A DNA stretch of 64,000 bases from Candidatus Dojkabacteria bacterium (lineage in GTDB: Bacteria > Patescibacteriota > Dojkabacteria > B142 > OLB20), in the NCBI GenBank assembly GCA_035444565.1, contig DAOMOX010000001.1, forward strand, positions 258,335-322,334. The letters run 5' to 3'. Positions within the stretch are counted from its first letter, which is position 1. Every line of letters starts with the position of its first letter. The position numbers and the translations under genes are program-made. The notes below the pieces were generated by a model. That model made no database searches and was not told the DNA's origin. It worked only from the letters and a program-made list of their open reading frames with translations. Positions 46,816-55,619 of the stretch are shown here, piece after piece.

Positions 46816-49107
46816 ATGTTGCGAACATCCCACCTTTTAGATAACCTTGTTATAGTCATGAATAAAATATCAAATAAAAACACCAGAGATTTCAAGAGAT
46901 TCATCTTCGGAGTAATCTCAGTCATCTTGATGATATTTTTCGTTCTAATTTTCCATTTTTCTACTAAATATCAACCAATTGATGTAGACGCAGCTAGGAA
47001 CACAATTACTGGGACATACTCTATTATTATTGAGGAAGATTTTAAGAGTTTTAAAAGTAAGGATATACCCGTGCTCGTCAAGGACGACAAATCAATAATA
47101 CAACTGGGTAATCTAAATAAACTACCGAAAGGGACTAAACCCGGGGATAAAATAAAAATTACAGGTGTATATAATAAAAAAGCCGTATTAAATATTAGGT
47201 CATCGACGCTTACAAGTGTTTCAAAATCGAGAACCAGTAATTTATCACAAATAAATGTGCGAATCTTACCCGTAAACCTCAGAAATAATAACACTAATGC
47301 TTTCACCAAAGAACAAATGCAAAATGTCCTAAACGGAAATAATAATCCTATAAGCGCAGATAGATTTATGCAGAAAGTTTCAAAAGGAAGATTCAAACTC
47401 GGCGAAGTCAAAGTCGAAGACTGGTACAAAATTGACACTAAAGATATTCCTACAAACGATGTCTGCACAGTCTACGATATCAATACCATCATCAATCACC
47501 TTGATGAACAATACAATGCAGACGTGTATAACAAAAACTATCAAAGTTTGATTTTTATAATTGATGCGGAATGCTATAGAGGTGGGCGTGCTGTGTCAAG
47601 ATTTGAAACTGGACAAGGATACATTTATTTGTCTACTGATGCATTTAAAGAAGGTGTCATTGCTCATGAAATGGGACACAATCTAGATATTCATCATGCG
47701 AACAGTTATGATTGCGGATTAGAGATGTATGGTCAATCCGCAAGTTGTAAAACCAAAGAATATGGTAGTCCATTCTCTGTAATGGGTCTCGATGTTTACG
47801 ATAATTTATTTAGAGAATTCAATGGTGCTGAAAGAATCCGGGCAGGATGGCTCAACAGTTCAGAAATTACGAAAGTTACCCAAAGCGGCAAATATACAAT
47901 CTACCCGTTAAGTGAGGTCACAACTCAGCCGAAAGTTTTGGAAATCATGAAAAGCGATATTCAAACCGACGAGAGATATTACATCGACTTCAGAACACCA
48001 ACCGCACCATTTGATTCTATTGATAGTGACCTTTATGATGGAGCGAATGTTACTGGGGTTGGAATACAAACAACATTTACCCAAACATACAATCCCGACA
48101 GCTTATTCTCGGGACACTTACGACACACACAAATCATAGACTTTACTCCAGGGTCATTTATAGGTTTTAATGAATACTATAAAGACTTTCTTGATGCTAG
48201 ACTCACAAAAGTGGGTAATGAATACTACGACAAAATTAATGGAATAAAAATTAAAGTGCTCTCAATTACCAATCAAAAGGTTGAGCTTCAAGTTGATTTT
48301 ACAAAGAGTGTCCCTACAAGCCAAAATCTCATCACCTTCCGTGCCAAGAGTTCGAGCCCATTAGTAAAAGCTCACCTTAGTCTAAGAGATGTCACGACTG
48401 GTAAATATATTAAAGTAAAAGATTTCAGTAAACTTGATACTTATTACGCTAACTATTCTCATACAGAGACTAGTGACATGTCAATCACTCCGAAAGATGT
48501 CAGAATCTCATATAGTGGATATGATCCTAATCATCCTGAAGATTCGGAATATCTGGATTTACTTTGGTTGGAGATAAACAATACCCGTTATAGCGCCACA
48601 AACGCAGAGGCATACTCAACTGGTGCTTGGAATAAGTTAAAGTTGGCATGTACTGCTGGATATCCTAATGTCTACCCTGCAGAATTCGCTACCCCAACCA
48701 GACTTTCATGTCCTGATAAATACTTCCAGTTCATTAAAAGTGAGAGCTTACCGGTAAAGCTAAAGAATATGGCTATTCGAGCAGACTGCGATTTGTCACG
48801 AGACCCAGAAATTGTAATCACTTGGGCTAGCGATAAAAATAGCGCAATGTATTTTGTTGACTATTGTGAGGGAACAACATGTTCACCAACAACATCCCTT
48901 GACGGTGTACCCGAAGATAGTGGTCAAGATGGTATAAGGCGATTCTATGCACATATCGATGATCCATTTGGTCTTACTCCCCCACCCATAGCAGGGAAAA
49001 CATACAAATACAGAGTCGAAGGTGCAAAACTTTCGAATGGGGAGTACTTGGTAGGTCCGTGGTCTGACACCTTAAGTGTCACTGTTCCCCAAAACATTTG
49101 TAACTAA
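46816..49107 (+). CDS. Membrane-anchored or secreted zinc metalloprotease (HEXXH; metzincin-like HEMGHNLDIHH)
   Basis: 763 aa. N-terminal hydrophobic anchor 'FIFGVISVILMIFFVLIF'. 'IAHEMGHNLDIHHAN' = HExxHxxDxxH zinc site. Large beta-rich C-terminal region. Confidence 0.6.
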   Translation: MLRTSHLLDNLVIVMNKISNKNTRDFKRFIFGVISVILMIFFVLIFHFSTKYQPIDVDAARNTITGTYSIIIEEDFKSFKSKDIPVLVKDDKSIIQLGNLNKLPKGTKPGDKIKITGVYNKKAVLNIRSSTLTSVSKSRTSNLSQINVRILPVNLRNNNTNAFTKEQMQNVLNGNNNPISADRFMQKVSKGRFKLGEVKVEDWYKIDTKDIPTNDVCTVYDINTIINHLDEQYNADVYNKNYQSLIFIIDAECYRGGRAVSRFETGQGYIYLSTDAFKEGVIAHEMGHNLDIHHANSYDCGLEMYGQSASCKTKEYGSPFSVMGLDVYDNLFREFNGAERIRAGWLNSSEITKVTQSGKYTIYPLSEVTTQPKVLEIMKSDIQTDERYYIDFRTPTAPFDSIDSDLYDGANVTGVGIQTTFTQTYNPDSLFSGHLRHTQIIDFTPGSFIGFNEYYKDFLDARLTKVGNEYYDKINGIKIKVLSITNQKVELQVDFTKSVPTSQNLITFRAKSSSPLVKAHLSLRDVTTGKYIKVKDFSKLDTYYANYSHTETSDMSITPKDVRISYSGYDPNHPEDSEYLDLLWLEINNTRYSATNAEAYSTGAWNKLKLACTAGYPNVYPAEFATPTRLSCPDKYFQFIKSESLPVKLKNMAIRADCDLSRDPEIVITWASDKNSAMYFVDYCEGTTCSPTTSLDGVPEDSGQDGIRRFYAHIDDPFGLTPPPIAGKTYKYRVEGAKLSNGEYLVGPWSDTLSVTVPQNICN

Positions 49108-49474: not shown

Positions 49475-50224
49475 ATGTTTGTCGACAACCTAGATGATTA
49501 TGAAGAGCCGCATCAGCCCCTAAATCCAATCGAGACAGGAGAATTTGGGATAGTTTCTGATAGATTATTTACTTTTATTACACAGAAGCCTAGAGGTAGA
49601 CCTGAAAAAATTAGCTATTCATTAAATGAGGATGGGGAAAGACAAGTCTGTTATGTTCTTTCTCATCTAGATATTTCAGACCTATTCATCTTTCCTAAAT
49701 TAACAATTACCCAAAAAGCCATACTTGGTAATGGTAATTCTCTACTTATGTCCAATGCTGAAATTCTTGTGATGAGCCCTGATGAGTATCAGTTTGGAAC
49801 ACTTAACAATAATTCTGACGGAAACTCTAATTATTTATCCACGTTTTGGATTGAAGACCAAGTGGGGTTTCATCCAGTATCAATGTCGACCGAATTCTCA
49901 CTTGAGGGACAGAATTACCGACTAAATTTTAATAACCAAGGAAACCTTTTACAGATTATATCTGATTCTGTAGCAATGCCTAATTACAGAAATCAATCTA
50001 GATTTTCAAAACCACGCACAATGATTTATACCGATCAGAATGATTTACGACTCATAGCTAGAAACCTTTCAGCCTTATTAAGGGAGAGTGGAATACCCTC
50101 AAATTATGAGCACTTTTCATTGAAACGCGTTGACATAGCATTTACGAATCTTCTCGCATCCATTGGGACCGGATATAATTTCACTTCCGATGGAGATATA
50201 ATTCCCGTATTAAGATATCGTTAG
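49475..50224 (+). CDS. Hypothetical protein
   Basis: 249-aa ORF, N/S-rich, no recognised motif. Confidence 0.4.
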   Translation: MFVDNLDDYEEPHQPLNPIETGEFGIVSDRLFTFITQKPRGRPEKISYSLNEDGERQVCYVLSHLDISDLFIFPKLTITQKAILGNGNSLLMSNAEILVMSPDEYQFGTLNNNSDGNSNYLSTFWIEDQVGFHPVSMSTEFSLEGQNYRLNFNNQGNLLQIISDSVAMPNYRNQSRFSKPRTMIYTDQNDLRLIARNLSALLRESGIPSNYEHFSLKRVDIAFTNLLASIGTGYNFTSDGDIIPVLRYR

Positions 50225-50296: not shown

Positions 50297-53200
50297 ATGT
50301 TCAAACCCGTCAATCCAAAGCAAAATTTCCCTGAACTAGAGGGAGAAATTACAAAATTTTGGAAAGAAAATAAAATTTTTGAAAAATCTGTTGAAAATAG
50401 AAGTGCAAAGAACAGTTATATTTTCTATGACGGGCCTCCATTTATCACAGGTACTCCTCATTACGGTTCTCTACTTCCAAGTATAGCGAAAGACGTAATC
50501 CCTAGATATCAAACCATGCGAGGTAAAAGAGTCGAAAGAGTTTGGGGTTGGGATTGTCATGGATTACCAATTGAAAATAAAGTTGAGAAAAAACTAGGTA
50601 TTAAAAACAGACGTGAAATTGAAAAATATGGAATCGACAGGTTTATTGACGAATGTTACAACTACACCCGCGAAACTTCTGCAGAATGGAAATGGTACAT
50701 AGATAAAATCGGAAGATGGGTCGATATGGATAATGCATACAGGACCATGGACCAAGACTACATGGAAACTGTTATGTGGGTGTTCAAACAACTCCATGAA
50801 AAGGATTTGATTTACAAAGGAATGCGCACCTCACTTTATTGTACTCGCTGTGGAACACCTGTATCGAACTTTGAAATCGCTATGGATAACTCCTATGCAG
50901 ACATGGAAGATCCTGCGGTCACCATAAAGTTCCCAGTAACTACTCCCGGTGAATTCTCAGACAGCTCAATATTAGCTTGGACTACTACTCCATGGACACT
51001 CCCATCAAACAAAGCATTGGTGATTGATCCTGAGGAAACGTACATAAAAGCAAAAGTACAAAAACTCACTATTGAACTCGAACAAAGCTGGCAAGTGAAG
51101 GAATTACCAGAGAATCTAAAGAAATTAAAAAGGTCCGAAATCACACAGGCATACCTGGAAGACTATATTGATGAAAATGGGATAAAACCAAGAGACGCTC
51201 GTATTAGAAGGATTGATAGTAAATTTGAATTCACAACGAAATATTATGCTGGGAAATCTACCGAAACTGGACAATTAATTGAAAAAACCAAAGAAATCAC
51301 AAAAGAAGAATATATAGAGCTTATAAAACAAACAAAAGCAAAAGTAGTCAAAACCAGATACTACTACCCCCTTGAAGACGGATTAACAGCGGAGATTGAT
51401 GTGTATAGAAACCAACATGAAGGTGTAAATTTCGTAGAGGTGGAATTCAGTTCACTTAAGAAATTACAGAACTTCAAAAAGCCAGAATGGTTTGGAAAAG
51501 AAGTCACGGATTGTGACGCATGTTTCCCTAAATACATGGCAGATAAAAGCAGTGAACGAATCCTATCAGAAATAGATACTTACGTTCAGGCAGAACATAA
51601 TTACGAAGAAAATGTTCAAACTGATAACGTAATCCTCGCAAAAAAACGAGCAGAATACGCATTAGAGAACATTGATTATGAAATCGTAGAAGAATTTGAA
51701 GGAAAAAAATTATTAGGTTTGAAATACCGACCTCCTTTTGATTATTACAAAACCGAAAAAGGCGAACATCAAGTTTATGGTTTCCCTGGAATGGTTCACA
51801 TGGAAGAAGGAACAGGAATCGTTCATAGTGCCCCTGGATTTGGAGATATTGATACAGAGATGGGCCAGGAATATGGATTATCTATTGCGATGACCATTAA
51901 CGATGAAGGTAAATACTTACCACAAGTGAAAGACTTTGTAGGTTTGTATGTCAAAGATGCCGATCAACCAATTATTGAAAACCTCAAATCGAGAGACATA
52001 TTATTTAAAGTTGAGAAAATTGTTCACAGATACCCCTACTGCTGGCGTTGCGAAACTCCGCTAATTCACAAAGCCCAACCATCTTGGTTCATTGATATTG
52101 AAAAAATTCGCAAAGATTTATTGAAAAATAATGAAGACATCAACTGGGTACCAAAGCATCTAAAACATGGAAGATTTAAGAAGGGAATCGAAGTTGCACC
52201 TGACTGGGGAATTTCTAGAACTAGATATTGGGCAACACCAATGCCAGTCTGGCAAAGAGAAGAAGAAGGTCAAATCTTAGAAACAAAAGTTATCGGGAGT
52301 AGAGATGAACTTCGTGAACATGCAAACCAACCAATCACAAAAATCACATTCGTAAGACATGGTAATAAATCTCAAGATGATAGTCTAGACCCGGGAATGA
52401 CCGACTTGGGACATCAACAAGCAAAAGAACTAGCAAAAAAACTTTCGAAAGAGAAATTTGATGTAATAATCTCATCCCCAAAAAAAAGAACGCTTCAAAC
52501 AGCAGAATATATCAAAGAAGCTTTGGGTCAAGAATTCATAGAAGACAATTTATTTACTTCTCTCACAGATGGCGACGGTAGAGAGTTTTACAGACAAATA
52601 AAAAAACAACACAATGTCGAATATCTTCACGAACTTCCAGAAAGCATTTTGAGAGAGAAAATATTCCCTGTACTCACTCCATTAAAAGAAAACTTTGAGC
52701 AATTGTTGAAAAAATTCGAAGGTAAAAACATATTAATAATTTCGCATTCAGGGAAAATCAAATTCTTGGAACACATTATCGAAGGTTCAAACCTTAGAGC
52801 AGTTTTGACTTCAAAAATTAAAGAAGCCGGAACATACACGGCATATTTTCATGGAACCGATTTATTAGATTTACACAGACCCAAAATAGACCAAATTACG
52901 CTGAAGGGTAAAACTGGAGAATTGACGAGGGTGAAAGAGGTTCTAGACGTATGGATGGATAGTGCCTCTATGCCTTATGCTTCAAAGCACTACCCTTTCG
53001 AGAACAAACAAATGCTAGAAGAAAATTATCCAGCTGATTTTATTGTTGAATATATTGCACAAACTAGGGCATGGTTCTATGTGATGCATGTGATTTCAAC
53101 AGCATTATTGAATCAACCCTCGTTTAAAAATGTCATAACTACAGGGGTGATTTTTGGAACTGACGGTAGAAAAATGAGCAAAAGCTATGGAAATTATCCC

Positions 53201-54307
53201 GATCCTCGAGACGTACTTGAAAATTATGGTGCAGAAACATTAAGAATGTATTTGATGGGTTCCAAGATTATGCTTGGAGAGGATATGAATTTTGACGAGG
53301 ATGCACTTAAAGAGCAATACAAAACTTTCCTTCTACCACTTTGGAATAGCTATTCATTCTTTGTCACATACGCAAACATCCATAACTGGGAACCTAGTGG
53401 GAAGTTAGATTCAAAAGATCAACTTGATAAATGGATAGTCGCAAAACTTGATGAGACTAAGAGTCACTTCATCAAAGCCATGGATTCCTATAATATCCCC
53501 TCAGCAGTAAAATTACTTCCAGAGTTTATCGACATATTATCAAGATGGTATATCAGAAGATCACGCAGTAGGTTTGCGCAAGGATCGGAAGATGCTTTAA
53601 GTACGTTACACTACATCTTGGTTGAATTTACAAAGTTGTCCGCATCAGTAGTTCCATTTGTTTCAGAAGAGATATTCCAAAATCTACAAAATGACAATCA
53701 ATTTGAATCTGTGCATTTATCTGATCTTGAAAAACCAAAGAAATCAACTTTAGAAAACAATGCTTCGTTATTACAAAAGATGGAATTAGTTAGAGAGATT
53801 TCGACACTAGGTCAATCATTGCGGGTACAAAACAATCTCAAAGTTAGACAACCATTACAGAGTGTTGAGATTTATTTACAGGATAAAAATCTTGCAACTG
53901 AGGGAGATATGGGTTGGATGAATGAAATCGTAAAAGACGAACTCAATGTGAAGCAAGTTAAGTTCGTAAACAAAAAGCCTGAAAATGAACTTCTCGTCAG
54001 CTCGGGTCTAAATGACACCCTATTCGTCGGATTGGACTCTAAACTAACACCCGAATTGGAGGCAGAGGGAATTCTTCGTGAGCTTACAAGACAGATTCAG
54101 AGCCAAAGGAAAAAGTTAGGATTGAATATGGGTGACAAAATTGATTTAACAATTCAAACTGATGACAAGAAACTTGATGGAATAATCAAAAAGAATCAAA
54201 AAGGATTTGCTGAATCAGTAAATGCTACAAACATCCATTTCACTACAGCGAATCTGGAACACAAATTATCTATCAACGGTTCAGAACTAACCCTATCTCT
54301 TAGTTAG
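50297..54307 (+). CDS. ileS: Isoleucyl-tRNA synthetase (eukaryote/archaeal-like type) carrying two inserted domains: a CYTH/triphosphate-tunnel-like domain in the editing (CP1) region and a histidine-phosphatase (PGAM/SixA-like, RHG) domain before the KMSKS half
   Basis: 1336 aa. Class-I motifs 'PPFITGTPHYGS' (HIGH variant) and 'KMSKSYGN'. Editing-domain motifs 'TTTPWTLPSNKALVIDPEE' and 'EEGTGIVHSAPGFG'. Anticodon-binding region intact. The insert at aa ~255-447 (nt ~51059-51637) shows 'IELEQSWQVKELPENL...EITQAYLED..ARIRRI..TTKYY..KVVKTRYYYPLEDGLTAEIDVYRNQHEGVNFVEVEF'. The insert at aa ~678-855 (nt ~52328-52861) shows 'ITFVRHGNKSQDDSLDPGMTDLGHQQAKELA..FDVIISSPKKRTLQTAEYI..ILIISHSGKIKFL'. Confidence 0.9.
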   Translation: MFKPVNPKQNFPELEGEITKFWKENKIFEKSVENRSAKNSYIFYDGPPFITGTPHYGSLLPSIAKDVIPRYQTMRGKRVERVWGWDCHGLPIENKVEKKLGIKNRREIEKYGIDRFIDECYNYTRETSAEWKWYIDKIGRWVDMDNAYRTMDQDYMETVMWVFKQLHEKDLIYKGMRTSLYCTRCGTPVSNFEIAMDNSYADMEDPAVTIKFPVTTPGEFSDSSILAWTTTPWTLPSNKALVIDPEETYIKAKVQKLTIELEQSWQVKELPENLKKLKRSEITQAYLEDYIDENGIKPRDARIRRIDSKFEFTTKYYAGKSTETGQLIEKTKEITKEEYIELIKQTKAKVVKTRYYYPLEDGLTAEIDVYRNQHEGVNFVEVEFSSLKKLQNFKKPEWFGKEVTDCDACFPKYMADKSSERILSEIDTYVQAEHNYEENVQTDNVILAKKRAEYALENIDYEIVEEFEGKKLLGLKYRPPFDYYKTEKGEHQVYGFPGMVHMEEGTGIVHSAPGFGDIDTEMGQEYGLSIAMTINDEGKYLPQVKDFVGLYVKDADQPIIENLKSRDILFKVEKIVHRYPYCWRCETPLIHKAQPSWFIDIEKIRKDLLKNNEDINWVPKHLKHGRFKKGIEVAPDWGISRTRYWATPMPVWQREEEGQILETKVIGSRDELREHANQPITKITFVRHGNKSQDDSLDPGMTDLGHQQAKELAKKLSKEKFDVIISSPKKRTLQTAEYIKEALGQEFIEDNLFTSLTDGDGREFYRQIKKQHNVEYLHELPESILREKIFPVLTPLKENFEQLLKKFEGKNILIISHSGKIKFLEHIIEGSNLRAVLTSKIKEAGTYTAYFHGTDLLDLHRPKIDQITLKGKTGELTRVKEVLDVWMDSASMPYASKHYPFENKQMLEENYPADFIVEYIAQTRAWFYVMHVISTALLNQPSFKNVITTGVIFGTDGRKMSKSYGNYPDPRDVLENYGAETLRMYLMGSKIMLGEDMNFDEDALKEQYKTFLLPLWNSYSFFVTYANIHNWEPSGKLDSKDQLDKWIVAKLDETKSHFIKAMDSYNIPSAVKLLPEFIDILSRWYIRRSRSRFAQGSEDALSTLHYILVEFTKLSASVVPFVSEEIFQNLQNDNQFESVHLSDLEKPKKSTLENNASLLQKMELVREISTLGQSLRVQNNLKVRQPLQSVEIYLQDKNLATEGDMGWMNEIVKDELNVKQVKFVNKKPENELLVSSGLNDTLFVGLDSKLTPELEAEGILRELTRQIQSQRKKLGLNMGDKIDLTIQTDDKKLDGIIKKNQKGFAESVNATNIHFTTANLEHKLSINGSELTLSLS

Positions 54308-54374: not shown

Positions 54375-55010
54375 ATGTTTAATTTAGAAAAAAATCCGTT
54401 CCTCCACGATTTAAAGGTTAAAACCAAAGGTAGTGTAATAATCGACATATTACAAACTGTAGTTTTAGCTCTTGCATTTAGTCTTTTCATTTATCTAGTA
54501 TTTCTCATCCCGAGCCAAGTTGAAGGTCCATCTATGGAACCAAATTTCTACAACAGAGAACTACTTTTCGCTGATAGAACTGTACAGTGGATTGGATCCA
54601 CATCTTTGGGAGCAGGAGTCTATGATTACCACAAAGGAGATGTTGTAATTTTTGATTTTAACGGAATCAACCTAATCAAAAGAGTCGTAGCAACAGAAGG
54701 AGACAAAATCAGACTAACAGGAGGAAGAGTTTATGTTAACGAAAAATTATTAAATGAGCCATATTTGCCGAGTGGCAGAATGAGCAATGTGCCTGATCCT
54801 TCCAGAGCCACAATATTAGAAGACCAGGTAGAAATTGTCCCAGAAGACTCATATTTCCTAATGGGCGATAATCGAGAAGTGAGCAAGGACTCTCGATATA
54901 GTGATGTTGGTTTTGTAGAGAGGCGCCAACTCAAAGGAAGGGTATTTTTACGATACTGGCCTGTAGACAAATTAGGCACTATTCGTCCGGGTCAACCATC
55001 TCAAGATTAA
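54375..55010 (+). CDS. lepB: Signal peptidase I
   Basis: 211 aa. N-terminal TM, 'EGPSMEPNF' (catalytic Ser box), 'LIKRVVATEGDKI', 'GDNREVSKDSRY' (Lys box). Confidence 0.8.
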   Translation: MFNLEKNPFLHDLKVKTKGSVIIDILQTVVLALAFSLFIYLVFLIPSQVEGPSMEPNFYNRELLFADRTVQWIGSTSLGAGVYDYHKGDVVIFDFNGINLIKRVVATEGDKIRLTGGRVYVNEKLLNEPYLPSGRMSNVPDPSRATILEDQVEIVPEDSYFLMGDNREVSKDSRYSDVGFVERRQLKGRVFLRYWPVDKLGTIRPGQPSQD

Positions 55011-55013
55011 ACC

Positions 55014-55619
55014 TTGGAAAATTTCCTTAACCACAAAAAAACAAAAAATATTCTTGATTTCCTAGAAACGCTCACAATCGCTTTGGCTTTTTGTGCATTC
55101 ATCTATCTGACTATCGCTTTTCCAAATAAAGTAGAAGGACAATCAATGGAGCCGACTTTTCATCATAGCGACTTAGTTATAACAAACAAGACTGTTCAGT
55201 ATCTTGGCAATACAGATTTCGGACAAAGCAGGAACTATGATTACCAAAGAGGTGATGTTGTAATAGTAAAACAAGGTAATACTGATTTGATCAAAAGAGT
55301 TGTCGCTCTTGAAGGGGAAGAAGTTGAGATTAAAAATAATAATGTGTATATAAATGGTACGGAATTGGAAGAAGAATATTTACCAACCACCGTCAGAACA
55401 AAACTCCCCTCTTACGAACTCAGTCTTTTCCGTAATGATTCCTCAATAACTGTTCCTGCAAATTCATATTTTGTAATGGGAGACAATCGCGAACATAGTA
55501 AAGACTCACGTTTTAAGGAAATCGGTTTCATTTCGAGATCAAATATCAAAGGACGCGTAATTTTCCGTTACTGGCCTCTCGCAGACTTAGGAATTATACA
55601 TAGAGGAGAATATAAATAA
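55014..55619 (+). CDS. lepB: Signal peptidase I (tandem paralog)
   Basis: 201 aa. 'EGQSMEPTF', 'LIKRVVALEGEEV', 'GDNREHSKDSRF'. Confidence 0.8.
   Translation: MENFLNHKKTKNILDFLETLTIALAFCAFIYLTIAFPNKVEGQSMEPTFHHSDLVITNKTVQYLGNTDFGQSRNYDYQRGDVVIVKQGNTDLIKRVVALEGEEVEIKNNNVYINGTELEEEYLPTTVRTKLPSYELSLFRNDSSITVPANSYFVMGDNREHSKDSRFKEIGFISRSNIKGRVIFRYWPLADLGIIHRGEYK

Follow-up and report, generated by a model that had tools for sequence, protein, structure and literature searches.

The ileS gene in the 64-kb window analysed here (the whole stretch of Candidatus Dojkabacteria contig DAOMOX010000001.1, whose numbering is used throughout) encodes an isoleucyl-tRNA synthetase (IleRS) in which two hydrolase domains are nested: a predicted CYTH/triphosphate tunnel metalloenzyme (TTM) domain in connective peptide 1 (CP1, the editing domain) and a predicted branch-1 histidine phosphatase domain in connective peptide 2 (CP2). 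Related synthetases carry four hydrolase families at these sites as interchangeable cassettes. On balance we lean towards a working IleRS whose two nested hydrolases would carry out tethered house-cleaning of nucleotides or polyphosphates.

Two inserted segments in a single synthetase frame

An earlier note, made from the DNA sequence without database searches, had described a continuous 1336-aa ileS frame with two extra blocks at aa ~255-447 and ~678-855. The corresponding open reading frame (ORF) is indeed one uninterrupted 1336-aa frame:

50297..54307 (+): ileS, 1336-aa type-2 (eukaryote/archaeal-like) IleRS, stop codon included (ORF, TIGR00392, PDB relatives)

This ORF scores 804 bits against the TIGR00392 equivalog hidden Markov model (HMM), well above the IleRS cutoff of 621.4. 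Its closest solved relatives by phmmer are Priestia megaterium IleRS2 (8C8V, E=1e-199) and the Thermus thermophilus enzyme (1ILE, E=3e-195). The alignment to 8C8V splits into three colinear blocks (query residues 3-253, 446-656 and 837-1309 against chain residues 2-247, 254-461 and 467-932), and two query segments of ~180 aa are therefore without a counterpart in 8C8V. A MAFFT alignment of the 120 best IleRS matches (P0001-P0120), on which all insert counts below are based, places the segments missing from the ~950-1000-aa relatives at aa 257-440 and aa 685-857, confirming both blocks with nearly the boundaries given in that note; the motifs quoted in the earlier note all lie where it had placed them. 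P0001 is the identical protein, from a 516-kb contig of a Candidatus Dojkabacteria metagenome-assembled genome, and is annotated there just as 'class I tRNA ligase family protein'.

Insert 1: a CYTH/triphosphate tunnel domain

The first insert (site A) interrupts a β-hairpin of the CP1 editing domain at its turn, 20 residues past the Thr-rich motif. Its flanks in the query read TYIKAKVQK-(184 aa)-QTDNVILAKKR, and the corresponding segment in insert-free relatives reads DYVLIEYKSEKLILAKKR.

51065..51616 (+): insert 1, aa 257-440 (184 aa), predicted complete CYTH/TTM domain with a C-terminal helical extension (alignment, profile, AF2, Foldseek)
51074..51088 (+): variant of the ExExK motif, E260-L-E262-Q-S264, both metal-binding Glu kept and Lys replaced by Ser (alignment)
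51200..51448 (+): other tunnel residues, R302, R304, K315, K352, R354, E366, D368, E381 and E383 (alignment)

A phmmer search of the PDB with insert 1 retrieved NeuTTM/NE1496 of Nitrosomonas europaea (2FBL, 3TYP) at E=2.4e-8, and a family profile built from the insert and 56 stand-alone homologues (profile A1) matched NeuTTM 2FBL over its full length at E=1.7e-42, with archaeal CYTH proteins (1YEM and 2DC4) also among the matches. The AlphaFold2 (AF2) model built on the A1 alignment has a mean predicted local distance difference test score (pLDDT) of 91.9 and nine β-strands, and displays the eight-stranded β-barrel tunnel fold of the TTM superfamily. The top 26 Foldseek matches of this model in the PDB are all TTM/CYTH proteins (NeuTTM, PH1819, SaTTM, ygiF, AtTTM3, ThTPase), with 2FBL/3TYP scoring best at E=2.5e-11. 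The earlier note had proposed the CYTH assignment and named HMM searches that miss the CYTH profile as grounds for abandoning it. No match to the Pfam CYTH family PF01928 was found at E<=1, either with insert 1 alone or with the full protein, and an NCBIfam search of the insert gave no CYTH match at E<=1; PF01928 does match some of the stand-alone homologues. This failure is overridden here because the profile and structure evidence is stronger, and the assignment thus stands by phmmer, profile and AF2/Foldseek but not by Pfam. Sequence comparison and the predicted model together confirm insert 1 as a complete CYTH/TTM domain.

The catalytic set of TTM enzymes comprises the two Glu of the N-terminal ExExK strand and a C-terminal ExE acidic patch for a second metal, with the basic tunnel residues gripping the triphosphate (PMC4641920, PMC8233210). 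As the earlier note had recognised, the ExExK lysine is lost from the query, where S264 takes its place. Each of the tunnel residues other than this Lys is kept in 43-49 of the 49 IleRS-embedded CYTH copies; the Lys position is occupied by A, G, S, C or V in 45/49 embedded copies, and by A or G in the closest stand-alone homologues. Because the loss is common to the closest stand-alone relatives, it is a trait of the subfamily rather than decay following insertion.

Insert 2: a histidine phosphatase at the CP2 zinc knuckle

52349..52867 (+): insert 2, aa 685-857 (173 aa), predicted branch-1 histidine phosphatase (His_Phos_1) in CP2, right before DLHRPKID (Pfam, alignment, AF2, Foldseek)
52355..52363 (+): RHG catalytic motif, R687-H688-G689 (alignment)
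52487..52489 (+): second catalytic Arg, R731, in SPKKRTLQT (alignment)
52745..52747 (+): second catalytic His, H817, in ISHSG (alignment)

The histidine phosphatase assignment made in the earlier note is borne out by Pfam, by fold and by catalytic residues. PF00300 (His_Phos_1; cutoff 21.7 bits) scores 68.5 bits (E=8e-19) in the full protein and 74.3 bits (E=1.3e-20) on insert 2, which covers profile positions 1-177 of 194. The AF2 model of insert 2 has a pLDDT of 94.0, and its first Foldseek match is 4IJ6 (the H9A mutant of phosphoserine phosphatase 4IJ5) at E=3e-12, followed by 4IJ5 and 9MMH; the top matches include a riboflavin-pathway histidine phosphatase, TIGAR and PGAMs. The RHG motif, second Arg and second His are >=90% conserved among intact phosphatase homologues. 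In the alignment, E750/D751 form an acidic pair opposite the proton-donor Glu of stand-alone relatives, in a column that is variable across the inserts. All NCBIfam scores for specific phosphatase equivalogs (PspA, CobC, SixA, dPGM) fall far under their cutoffs (e.g., PspA, 57 vs 350 bits). Sequence and model thus confirm insert 2 as a branch-1 histidine phosphatase domain, with a predicted catalytic residue set that is complete in this protein.

Site B lies ~35 residues ahead of the second half of the catalytic HUP fold; in P. megaterium IleRS2 (PmIleRS2) the catalytic core boundaries are 40-168 and 513-632 (PMC10485003). Insert-free relatives have at site B a short linker followed by a CxxC zinc knuckle, which is absent in the query. 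The zinc-knuckle region of the query occupies 52868-52930 (aa 858-878) and reads DLHRPKIDQITLKGKTGELTR. Retention of the CxxC across the 120 homologues was as follows:

Phosphatase at site B: CxxC kept in 0/61
Ser-hydrolase at site B: CxxC kept in 4/4
No site-B insert: CxxC kept in 47/55

The presence of the phosphatase, whether intact or degenerate, matches absence of the CxxC perfectly. We infer that the phosphatase has stepped structurally into the place of the lost CP2 knuckle, which would explain why it has never been lost outright even where catalysis decayed.

Assembly artefact and intein explanations

A chimeric assembly or frameshift-masked fusion could generate a long ORF of this kind, and the inserts could be spliced inteins. 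In favour of such explanations, the ileS of locus L012 first appeared to be split within its phosphatase domain, and Pfam CYTH gave no match. However, the split in L012 (5417-5636) is a run of 10 N in the scaffold, beyond which the domain resumes in frame, and in more than 70 homologues from independent NCBI, JGI, ENA and Logan assemblies these very two sites carry inserts, whose divergence is graded, which answers the earlier proposal to look for the same insertions in related IleRS. The ortholog in locus L011 is colinear and equally 1336 aa in length, and dN/dS is much less than 1 in each insert. GC content shows no break at the insert junctions, and there are no flanking repeats. As regards inteins, which the earlier note had already doubted, no Hint domain or intein Pfam match was found, and the junctions (VQK/LTIELE...EENV/QTD and ITKIT/FVRHG...TDLL/DLHRP) have no Cys/Ser/Thr or His-Asn and thus lack the Cys/Ser...HN arrangement. 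The artefact and intein explanations are refuted by these observations and retain practically no probability. The L012 record is labelled 'Candidatus Saccharibacteria'; its ileS and downstream lepB fit the Dojkabacteria arrangement.

Selection on the inserts

Substitution rates were estimated by the Nei-Gojobori method for one pair, the query and its ortholog L011 (Dojkabacteria HKST-UBA15). The dN/dS ratios below are approximate because dS is saturated; the pN values give the same picture.

Catalytic core halves: dN/dS 0.017, 0.009; pN 0.022, 0.019
CYTH insert: dN/dS 0.014; pN 0.028
Rest of CP1: dN/dS 0.024; pN 0.030
Phosphatase insert: dN/dS 0.081; pN 0.124
C-terminal domains: dN/dS 0.050; pN 0.093

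Purifying selection thus acts on both inserts, and the CYTH ratio is as low as that of the catalytic core. Conservation of the CYTH domain across the clade resembles that of the editing domain (52-95% identity), and phosphatase identity falls to 25-36% where the core still shows 67-89%.

Exchange of cassettes among Dojkabacteria synthetases

Inserts are borne by 75 of the 120 best homologues, and the insert sequences cluster into four families at two main sites:

Site A, CYTH: 49 proteins
Site A, NUDIX: 16 proteins
Site B, His_Phos_1: 61 proteins
Site B, PF06821 Ser-hydrolase: 4 proteins

The site A NUDIX cassettes are found among P0050-P0068, and the site B Ser-hydrolases in P0035, P0059, P0067 and P0068. 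A third insertion site, just ahead of the WTTTPWT motif, is occupied by a Ser-hydrolase (P0051, P0052), by a second NUDIX domain (P0065, P0066) or, in P0041, by an unassigned segment of ~100 aa. Insert-bearing IleRS reach lengths of up to 1538 aa. The NUDIX box is intact in 14/16 copies and GxSxG in 4/4 Ser-hydrolases. Every module combination occurs, including CYTH alone, phosphatase alone and none, and the named sources of both insert-bearing and insert-free IleRS lie within Dojkabacteria/WS6.

A neighbour-joining tree of the homologues was built from 909 core columns and is indicative only. Insert content differs even between proteins with 70-81% core identity. Core identity is 72% between P0033 (CYTH) and P0056 (NUDIX), 81% between P0023 (CYTH + phosphatase) and P0040 (phosphatase only), and likewise 81% between P0049 (CYTH, 1166 aa) and P0108 (no insert, 984 aa). 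The last two proteins are 92-100% identical over their first 240 residues; near site A, P0049 has flanks of the CYTH-clade type (VKVQK/.../QTKEVIFAKKR), unlike P0108, a switch which indicates that cassette and flanks were imported together by recombination between ileS alleles. P0053 contains an apparent scar of clean CYTH deletion (VKVKKL/TVILAKK). A search for flanking direct or inverted repeats as a sign of mobile elements gave only chance-level matches around the inserts. These sequence comparisons show that cassettes are gained, lost and recombined among Dojkabacteria IleRS. The CYTH cassette in particular can be gained and lost cleanly, with its predicted active-site residues kept when it is present.

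Stand-alone relatives and origin of the cassettes

Stand-alone relatives of insert 1 were sought by a word-indexed search of 5.8 billion proteins and by an exhaustive HMMER search of 1.84 billion cluster representatives. The former returned stand-alone proteins of ~180 aa with 40-47% identity over 93% of the query, which share the C-terminal helical extension and the missing Lys. The few with source names appear as 'hypothetical', 'CYTH domain-containing' or 'adenylate cyclase' proteins, and one of them is assigned to the Patescibacteria group. The exhaustive pass gave 1788 CYTH relatives, and no synthetase-sized CYTH host other than the IleRS cluster was present among the best 150 of these. 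The sequence relationships thus show that the CYTH cassette derives from a ~180-aa stand-alone Patescibacteria CYTH family. Stand-alone relatives of the phosphatase are more distant (<=34% identity, E=3.5e-8). A scan of contigs with the CYTH insert used an exact-pattern method, which reaches close relatives only and gives no taxonomic census; it returned two IleRS loci (L011, L012) and distant Clostridia CYTH genes.

The neighbourhoods of seven stand-alone CYTH homologues were inspected. In L001 (8001-9159) the CYTH gene is 5 bp upstream of a PF06821 Ser-hydrolase gene, with HIT, Fic, ASCH and Peptidase_S66 genes nearby. In L002/L003 (L002 2722-4911) argS follows the CYTH gene at 67 bp, and a NUDIX gene is close by. 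In L006 (407-5543) the CYTH gene itself follows ksgA at 7 bp, and a NUDIX-NUDIX-His_Phos-HIT run lies 3 kb away. NUDIX, HD or α/β-hydrolase genes are found close to the remaining stand-alone CYTH genes. At family level, the Ser-hydrolase, His_Phos and NUDIX proteins encoded in these neighbourhoods are homologous to the IleRS cassettes (E=1e-12, 1e-6 and 1e-6, respectively). No conserved partner gene was found beside the stand-alone CYTH genes at these loci; the small upstream ORFs seen in L007, L008 and L010 are unrelated, and Pfam recognises none of them.

The host synthetase

Apart from the inserts, the protein has the domains of a type-2 IleRS. Pfam identifies tRNA-synt_1, Anticodon_1 (PF08264, E=2e-23) and DUF5915 (PF19302, E=2e-19), and the following features were located:

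50459..50470 (+): class I signature, non-canonical H55-Y-G-S58 where HxGH is expected (motif position, homologue alignment)
50978..50998 (+): Thr-rich editing motif WTTTPWT, aa 228-234, of the CP1 editing domain (kept in 120/120 homologues)
51809..51853 (+): editing-site motif GTGIVHSAPGFGDID (GTG..H..D type), aa 505-519 (motif position)
53171..53185 (+): KMSKS, aa 959-963, intact (motif position)
53426..53863 (+): anticodon-binding domain (Anticodon_1), aa 1044-1189 (Pfam)
54011..54301 (+): type-2 C-terminal domain (DUF5915), aa 1239-1335 (Pfam)

The earlier statement that the core motifs are intact therefore holds for KMSKS and the editing motifs but not for HIGH, which reads HYGS. Among the 120 IleRS of the candidate phyla radiation (CPR), the fourth signature position is S (54), H (42) or T (19), and otherwise N, A or Q. 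A connection of the HYGS change with the inserts was considered and rejected: this residue varies with or without inserts, with no correlation among the 120 homologues, so HYGS is unrelated to them. Type-2 IleRS are known to tolerate non-canonical signature motifs (PMC10485003). HYGS differs from G/AxHH, the non-canonical motif of mupirocin hyper-resistant IleRS2 (PMC10485003).

Proposed function and alternatives

Aminoacyl-tRNA synthetases (aaRS) form diadenosine polyphosphates (ApnA) and adenosine tetraphosphate (p4A) from the aminoacyl-adenylate. Two independently folding hydrolase domains are nested in CP surface loops, and in the proposed house-cleaning the synthetase, left undisturbed by them, should still charge and edit tRNA-Ile. 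The CYTH domain would probably be an active divalent-metal-dependent hydrolase of a small molecule bearing a triphosphate or polyphosphate, candidate substrates being inorganic triphosphate (PPPi), a nucleoside tri- or tetraphosphate or an ApnA-type compound; the phosphatase would strip a phosphomonoester and may additionally buttress CP2. The modules would have been drawn from the pool of small NUDIX, HIT, His_Phos, CYTH and Ser-hydrolase genes clustered in Patescibacteria genomes, and would be made stoichiometrically with an adenylate-forming enzyme that generates such by-products. Catalytic activity, substrates and coupling to the IleRS reaction are all inferred from sequence. House-cleaning is suggested because CYTH alternates with NUDIX at one loop, because the donor pool clusters with NUDIX and HIT genes, and because there is a precedent in mycobacterial MutT1, which combines a NUDIX and an RHG phosphatase domain in one polypeptide and acts on 8-oxo-(d)GTP and diadenosine polyphosphates (PMC11784022).

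Several of the findings weigh against such a role. Insert 1 is missed by PF01928, and most embedded CYTH copies lack the ExExK lysine, a residue regarded as a hallmark of substrate binding. The CYTH cassette has been cleanly lost several times (P0039, P0040, P0053) and some Dojkabacteria IleRS are insert-free, so the modules are dispensable for aminoacylation. About one third of the phosphatase inserts lack RHG or the whole N-terminal half, the C-terminal half being kept in all. In a divergent clade with 54% core identity to the query (P0076, P0095, P0100, P0110 and P0114) both inserts are degenerate yet retained: ExE and RxR are gone from the CYTH domain, which has acquired a ~20-aa loop, and the phosphatase is cut to 108-118 aa or has lost RHG. 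These degenerate phosphatases and the degenerate CYTH clade suggest that catalysis is dispensable in some lineages. The co-occurrence with small hydrolase genes, moreover, comes from few loci and involves genes that are common in CPR genomes.

Such points leave room for the inserts being structural passengers or pseudo-enzymes, fixed by constructive neutral evolution and serving as a scaffold or in ligand binding (e.g., as a triphosphate sensor), which we regard as doubtful but deserving serious consideration. The phosphatase, never fully lost once present, has repeatedly lost its catalytic residues or N-terminal half, its perfect coincidence with CxxC loss (0/61 vs 47/55) suggests a structural takeover, and it evolves much faster than the core; the CYTH domain, for its part, is without the ExExK lysine. 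Nevertheless, the query and its close relatives keep all phosphatase catalytic residues and all CYTH tunnel residues except one Lys, and the CYTH dN/dS of 0.014 is far tighter than a spacer needs. The clean deletions in P0039, P0040 and P0053 show that CYTH is not structurally locked. Its active-site residues are kept when it is present, and the NUDIX and Ser-hydrolase alternatives likewise keep their catalytic motifs.

A rather unlikely variant is that the Dojkabacteria IleRS serves as a docking platform on which interchangeable hydrolase cassettes act in cis on a product of the synthetase. The targets could be (di)nucleoside polyphosphates of the ApnA/p4A type, a misactivated adenylate or an inhibitor bound in the active site. 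On this view CYTH and NUDIX would alternate at one site as functional analogues. If it were true, the cassettes would constitute a hitherto unrecognised, physically coupled 'metabolite proofreading' layer on an aaRS, spread between ileS alleles by recombination.

The alternation at site A could also be read in terms of RNA. RNA triphosphatases and RppH trim RNA 5'-triphosphate ends, and CYTH and NUDIX are the two folds known for such processing; Cet1-type RNA triphosphatases are among the distant fold matches of insert 1, site A lies in the CP1 domain of IleRS that handles the acceptor end, and argS immediately follows one stand-alone CYTH gene, as an rRNA methyltransferase gene immediately precedes another. 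The modules would then heal tRNA ends, CYTH or NUDIX trimming a 5'-tri- or diphosphate and the phosphatase removing a 3' or 2',3'-cyclic phosphate to make tRNA-Ile chargeable. We consider this improbable. Among characterised relatives NeuTTM comes closest, and it is a specific inorganic triphosphatase rather than an RNA enzyme. The isoelectric points of the inserts (5.2 and 7.2, acidic to neutral) are unlike those of RNA-binding modules, and branch-1 histidine phosphatases are not known to act as RNA 3'-phosphatases. There is no tRNA or RNase P gene within the 64-kb window, and nothing points to 5'-triphosphorylated tRNA in these bacteria.

Self-protection, in which the cassettes would destroy aminoacyl-adenylate-mimicking or ester-type IleRS inhibitors at their target, seems very improbable. 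The HIT and Peptidase_S66 families include detoxifiers of aminoacyl-nucleotide antibiotics, and genes of both are found near a stand-alone CYTH gene; the cassette set includes an esterase-type Ser-hydrolase, and among the NCBIfam families is one of GNAT-bearing IleRS (NF040702). Antibiotics often target IleRS, and resistance has driven motif changes in the type-2 enzymes (PMC10485003). This support is purely circumstantial, however: no known inhibitor is a substrate of a CYTH or histidine phosphatase enzyme, the query is far under the NF040702 cutoff, and neither a meaningful match to the PADLOC defence models nor a resistance profile match was obtained.

Comparison with known systems

The query shares with the type-2 IleRS 8C8V and 1ILE the HUP core, the CP1 editing domain, KMSKS and the anticodon-binding and type-2 C-terminal domains. 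It differs in carrying enzymatic domains of 184 and 173 aa at 8C8V positions 247/254 and ~461/467, in lacking the CP2 CxxC knuckle and in having HYGS instead of HxGH. Insert 1 resembles NeuTTM in its predicted fold, the two β1 Glu, RxR, K, KxR, ExD, ExE and a 'PxWFGxEVT' C-terminal motif. Unlike NeuTTM, it is embedded in another protein, has Ser in place of Lys, and possesses an extra loop (YIDENGIKPRDA) and a C-terminal helical extension of ~35 aa, the latter common to the stand-alone Patescibacteria homologues. Insert 2 has the RHG motif, second Arg, second His and fold of branch-1 histidine phosphatases (iPSP1 of Hydrogenobacter 4IJ5, CobC, PhoE), but with 23-24% identity the match goes no further than the family, and the domain sits inside CP2 and is degenerate in many relatives. 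The combination of NUDIX and His_Phos in MutT1 recurs in several Dojkabacteria IleRS (P0050-P0058); the comparison is at superfamily level, as MutT1 is a simple two-domain fusion without synthetase insertion and the query has CYTH in the place of NUDIX. With NF040702, 'ileS_w_GNAT', the query shares the principle of module recruitment but is not a member (302 bits vs a cutoff of 1999).

The aaRS are among the most conserved enzymes, and domain recruitment by them is seen as mainly eukaryotic, usually terminal and usually non-enzymatic. They do accept extra modules, above all in the CP region and at their termini, such as the eukaryotic WHEP, GST and EMAPII appendages and the idiosyncratic CP1 insertions of LeuRS and ValRS. 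Unlike these accessory domains, the modules described here are complete hydrolases located inside the editing domain and CP2 and swapped as cassettes within one phylum. Recruitment of extra domains by synthetases is thus known; the novelty lies in complete hydrolases that are nested within the editing domain and CP2 and swapped as cassettes. No description of IleRS with CYTH, NUDIX or histidine phosphatase inserts, or of insertions in Dojkabacteria synthetases, was found in full-text searches of a collection with few subscription-journal papers, and two recent structural or evolutionary studies of type-2 IleRS (one of them PMC10485003) do not mention the inserts.

Four hydrolase families are swapped at the same loops of one bacterial synthetase throughout a CPR phylum. 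Should ApnA, p4A, PPPi or similar by-products be what the modules act on, these enzymes would offer a natural test of the physiological relevance of those side products and of what bacterial CYTH triphosphatases do biologically. As mere passengers, too, the modules would show how genome-reduced bacteria fit accessory enzymes inside essential genes, how a zinc knuckle can give way to an inserted domain that then becomes structurally locked, and which IleRS loops tolerate 180-aa insertions, knowledge that is useful for engineering.

Genomic context

The surroundings of ileS are ordinary chromosome, with fmt and lgt upstream and two lepB, parA, parB, an amidase gene and the RNase Y gene downstream. 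Scans for tRNA genes and for Rfam families at gathering threshold returned none in the 64-kb window, and HMMs derived from the inserts found no further copies of CYTH, His_Phos, NUDIX or Ser-hydrolase elsewhere in it. The two tandem signal peptidase I (Peptidase_S26) genes at 54375-55010 and 55014-55619 adjoin ileS downstream and are followed by parA and parB. Two ORFs upstream of ileS, 46816-49107 (763 aa) and 49475-50224 (249 aa), have no Pfam match. The former contains an HExxH-like metalloprotease motif (AHEMGHNLDIHH) and an N-terminal hydrophobic segment, and the latter has no recognisable features. Glycosyltransferase and cell-envelope functions take up much of the window. A 603-aa ORF at 166-1977 combines a CoA-ligase domain (PF00549) with a citrate synthase C-terminal domain (PF00285), an architecture of the ATP-citrate-lyase/citryl-CoA type that is unexpected for a metabolically reduced CPR genome.

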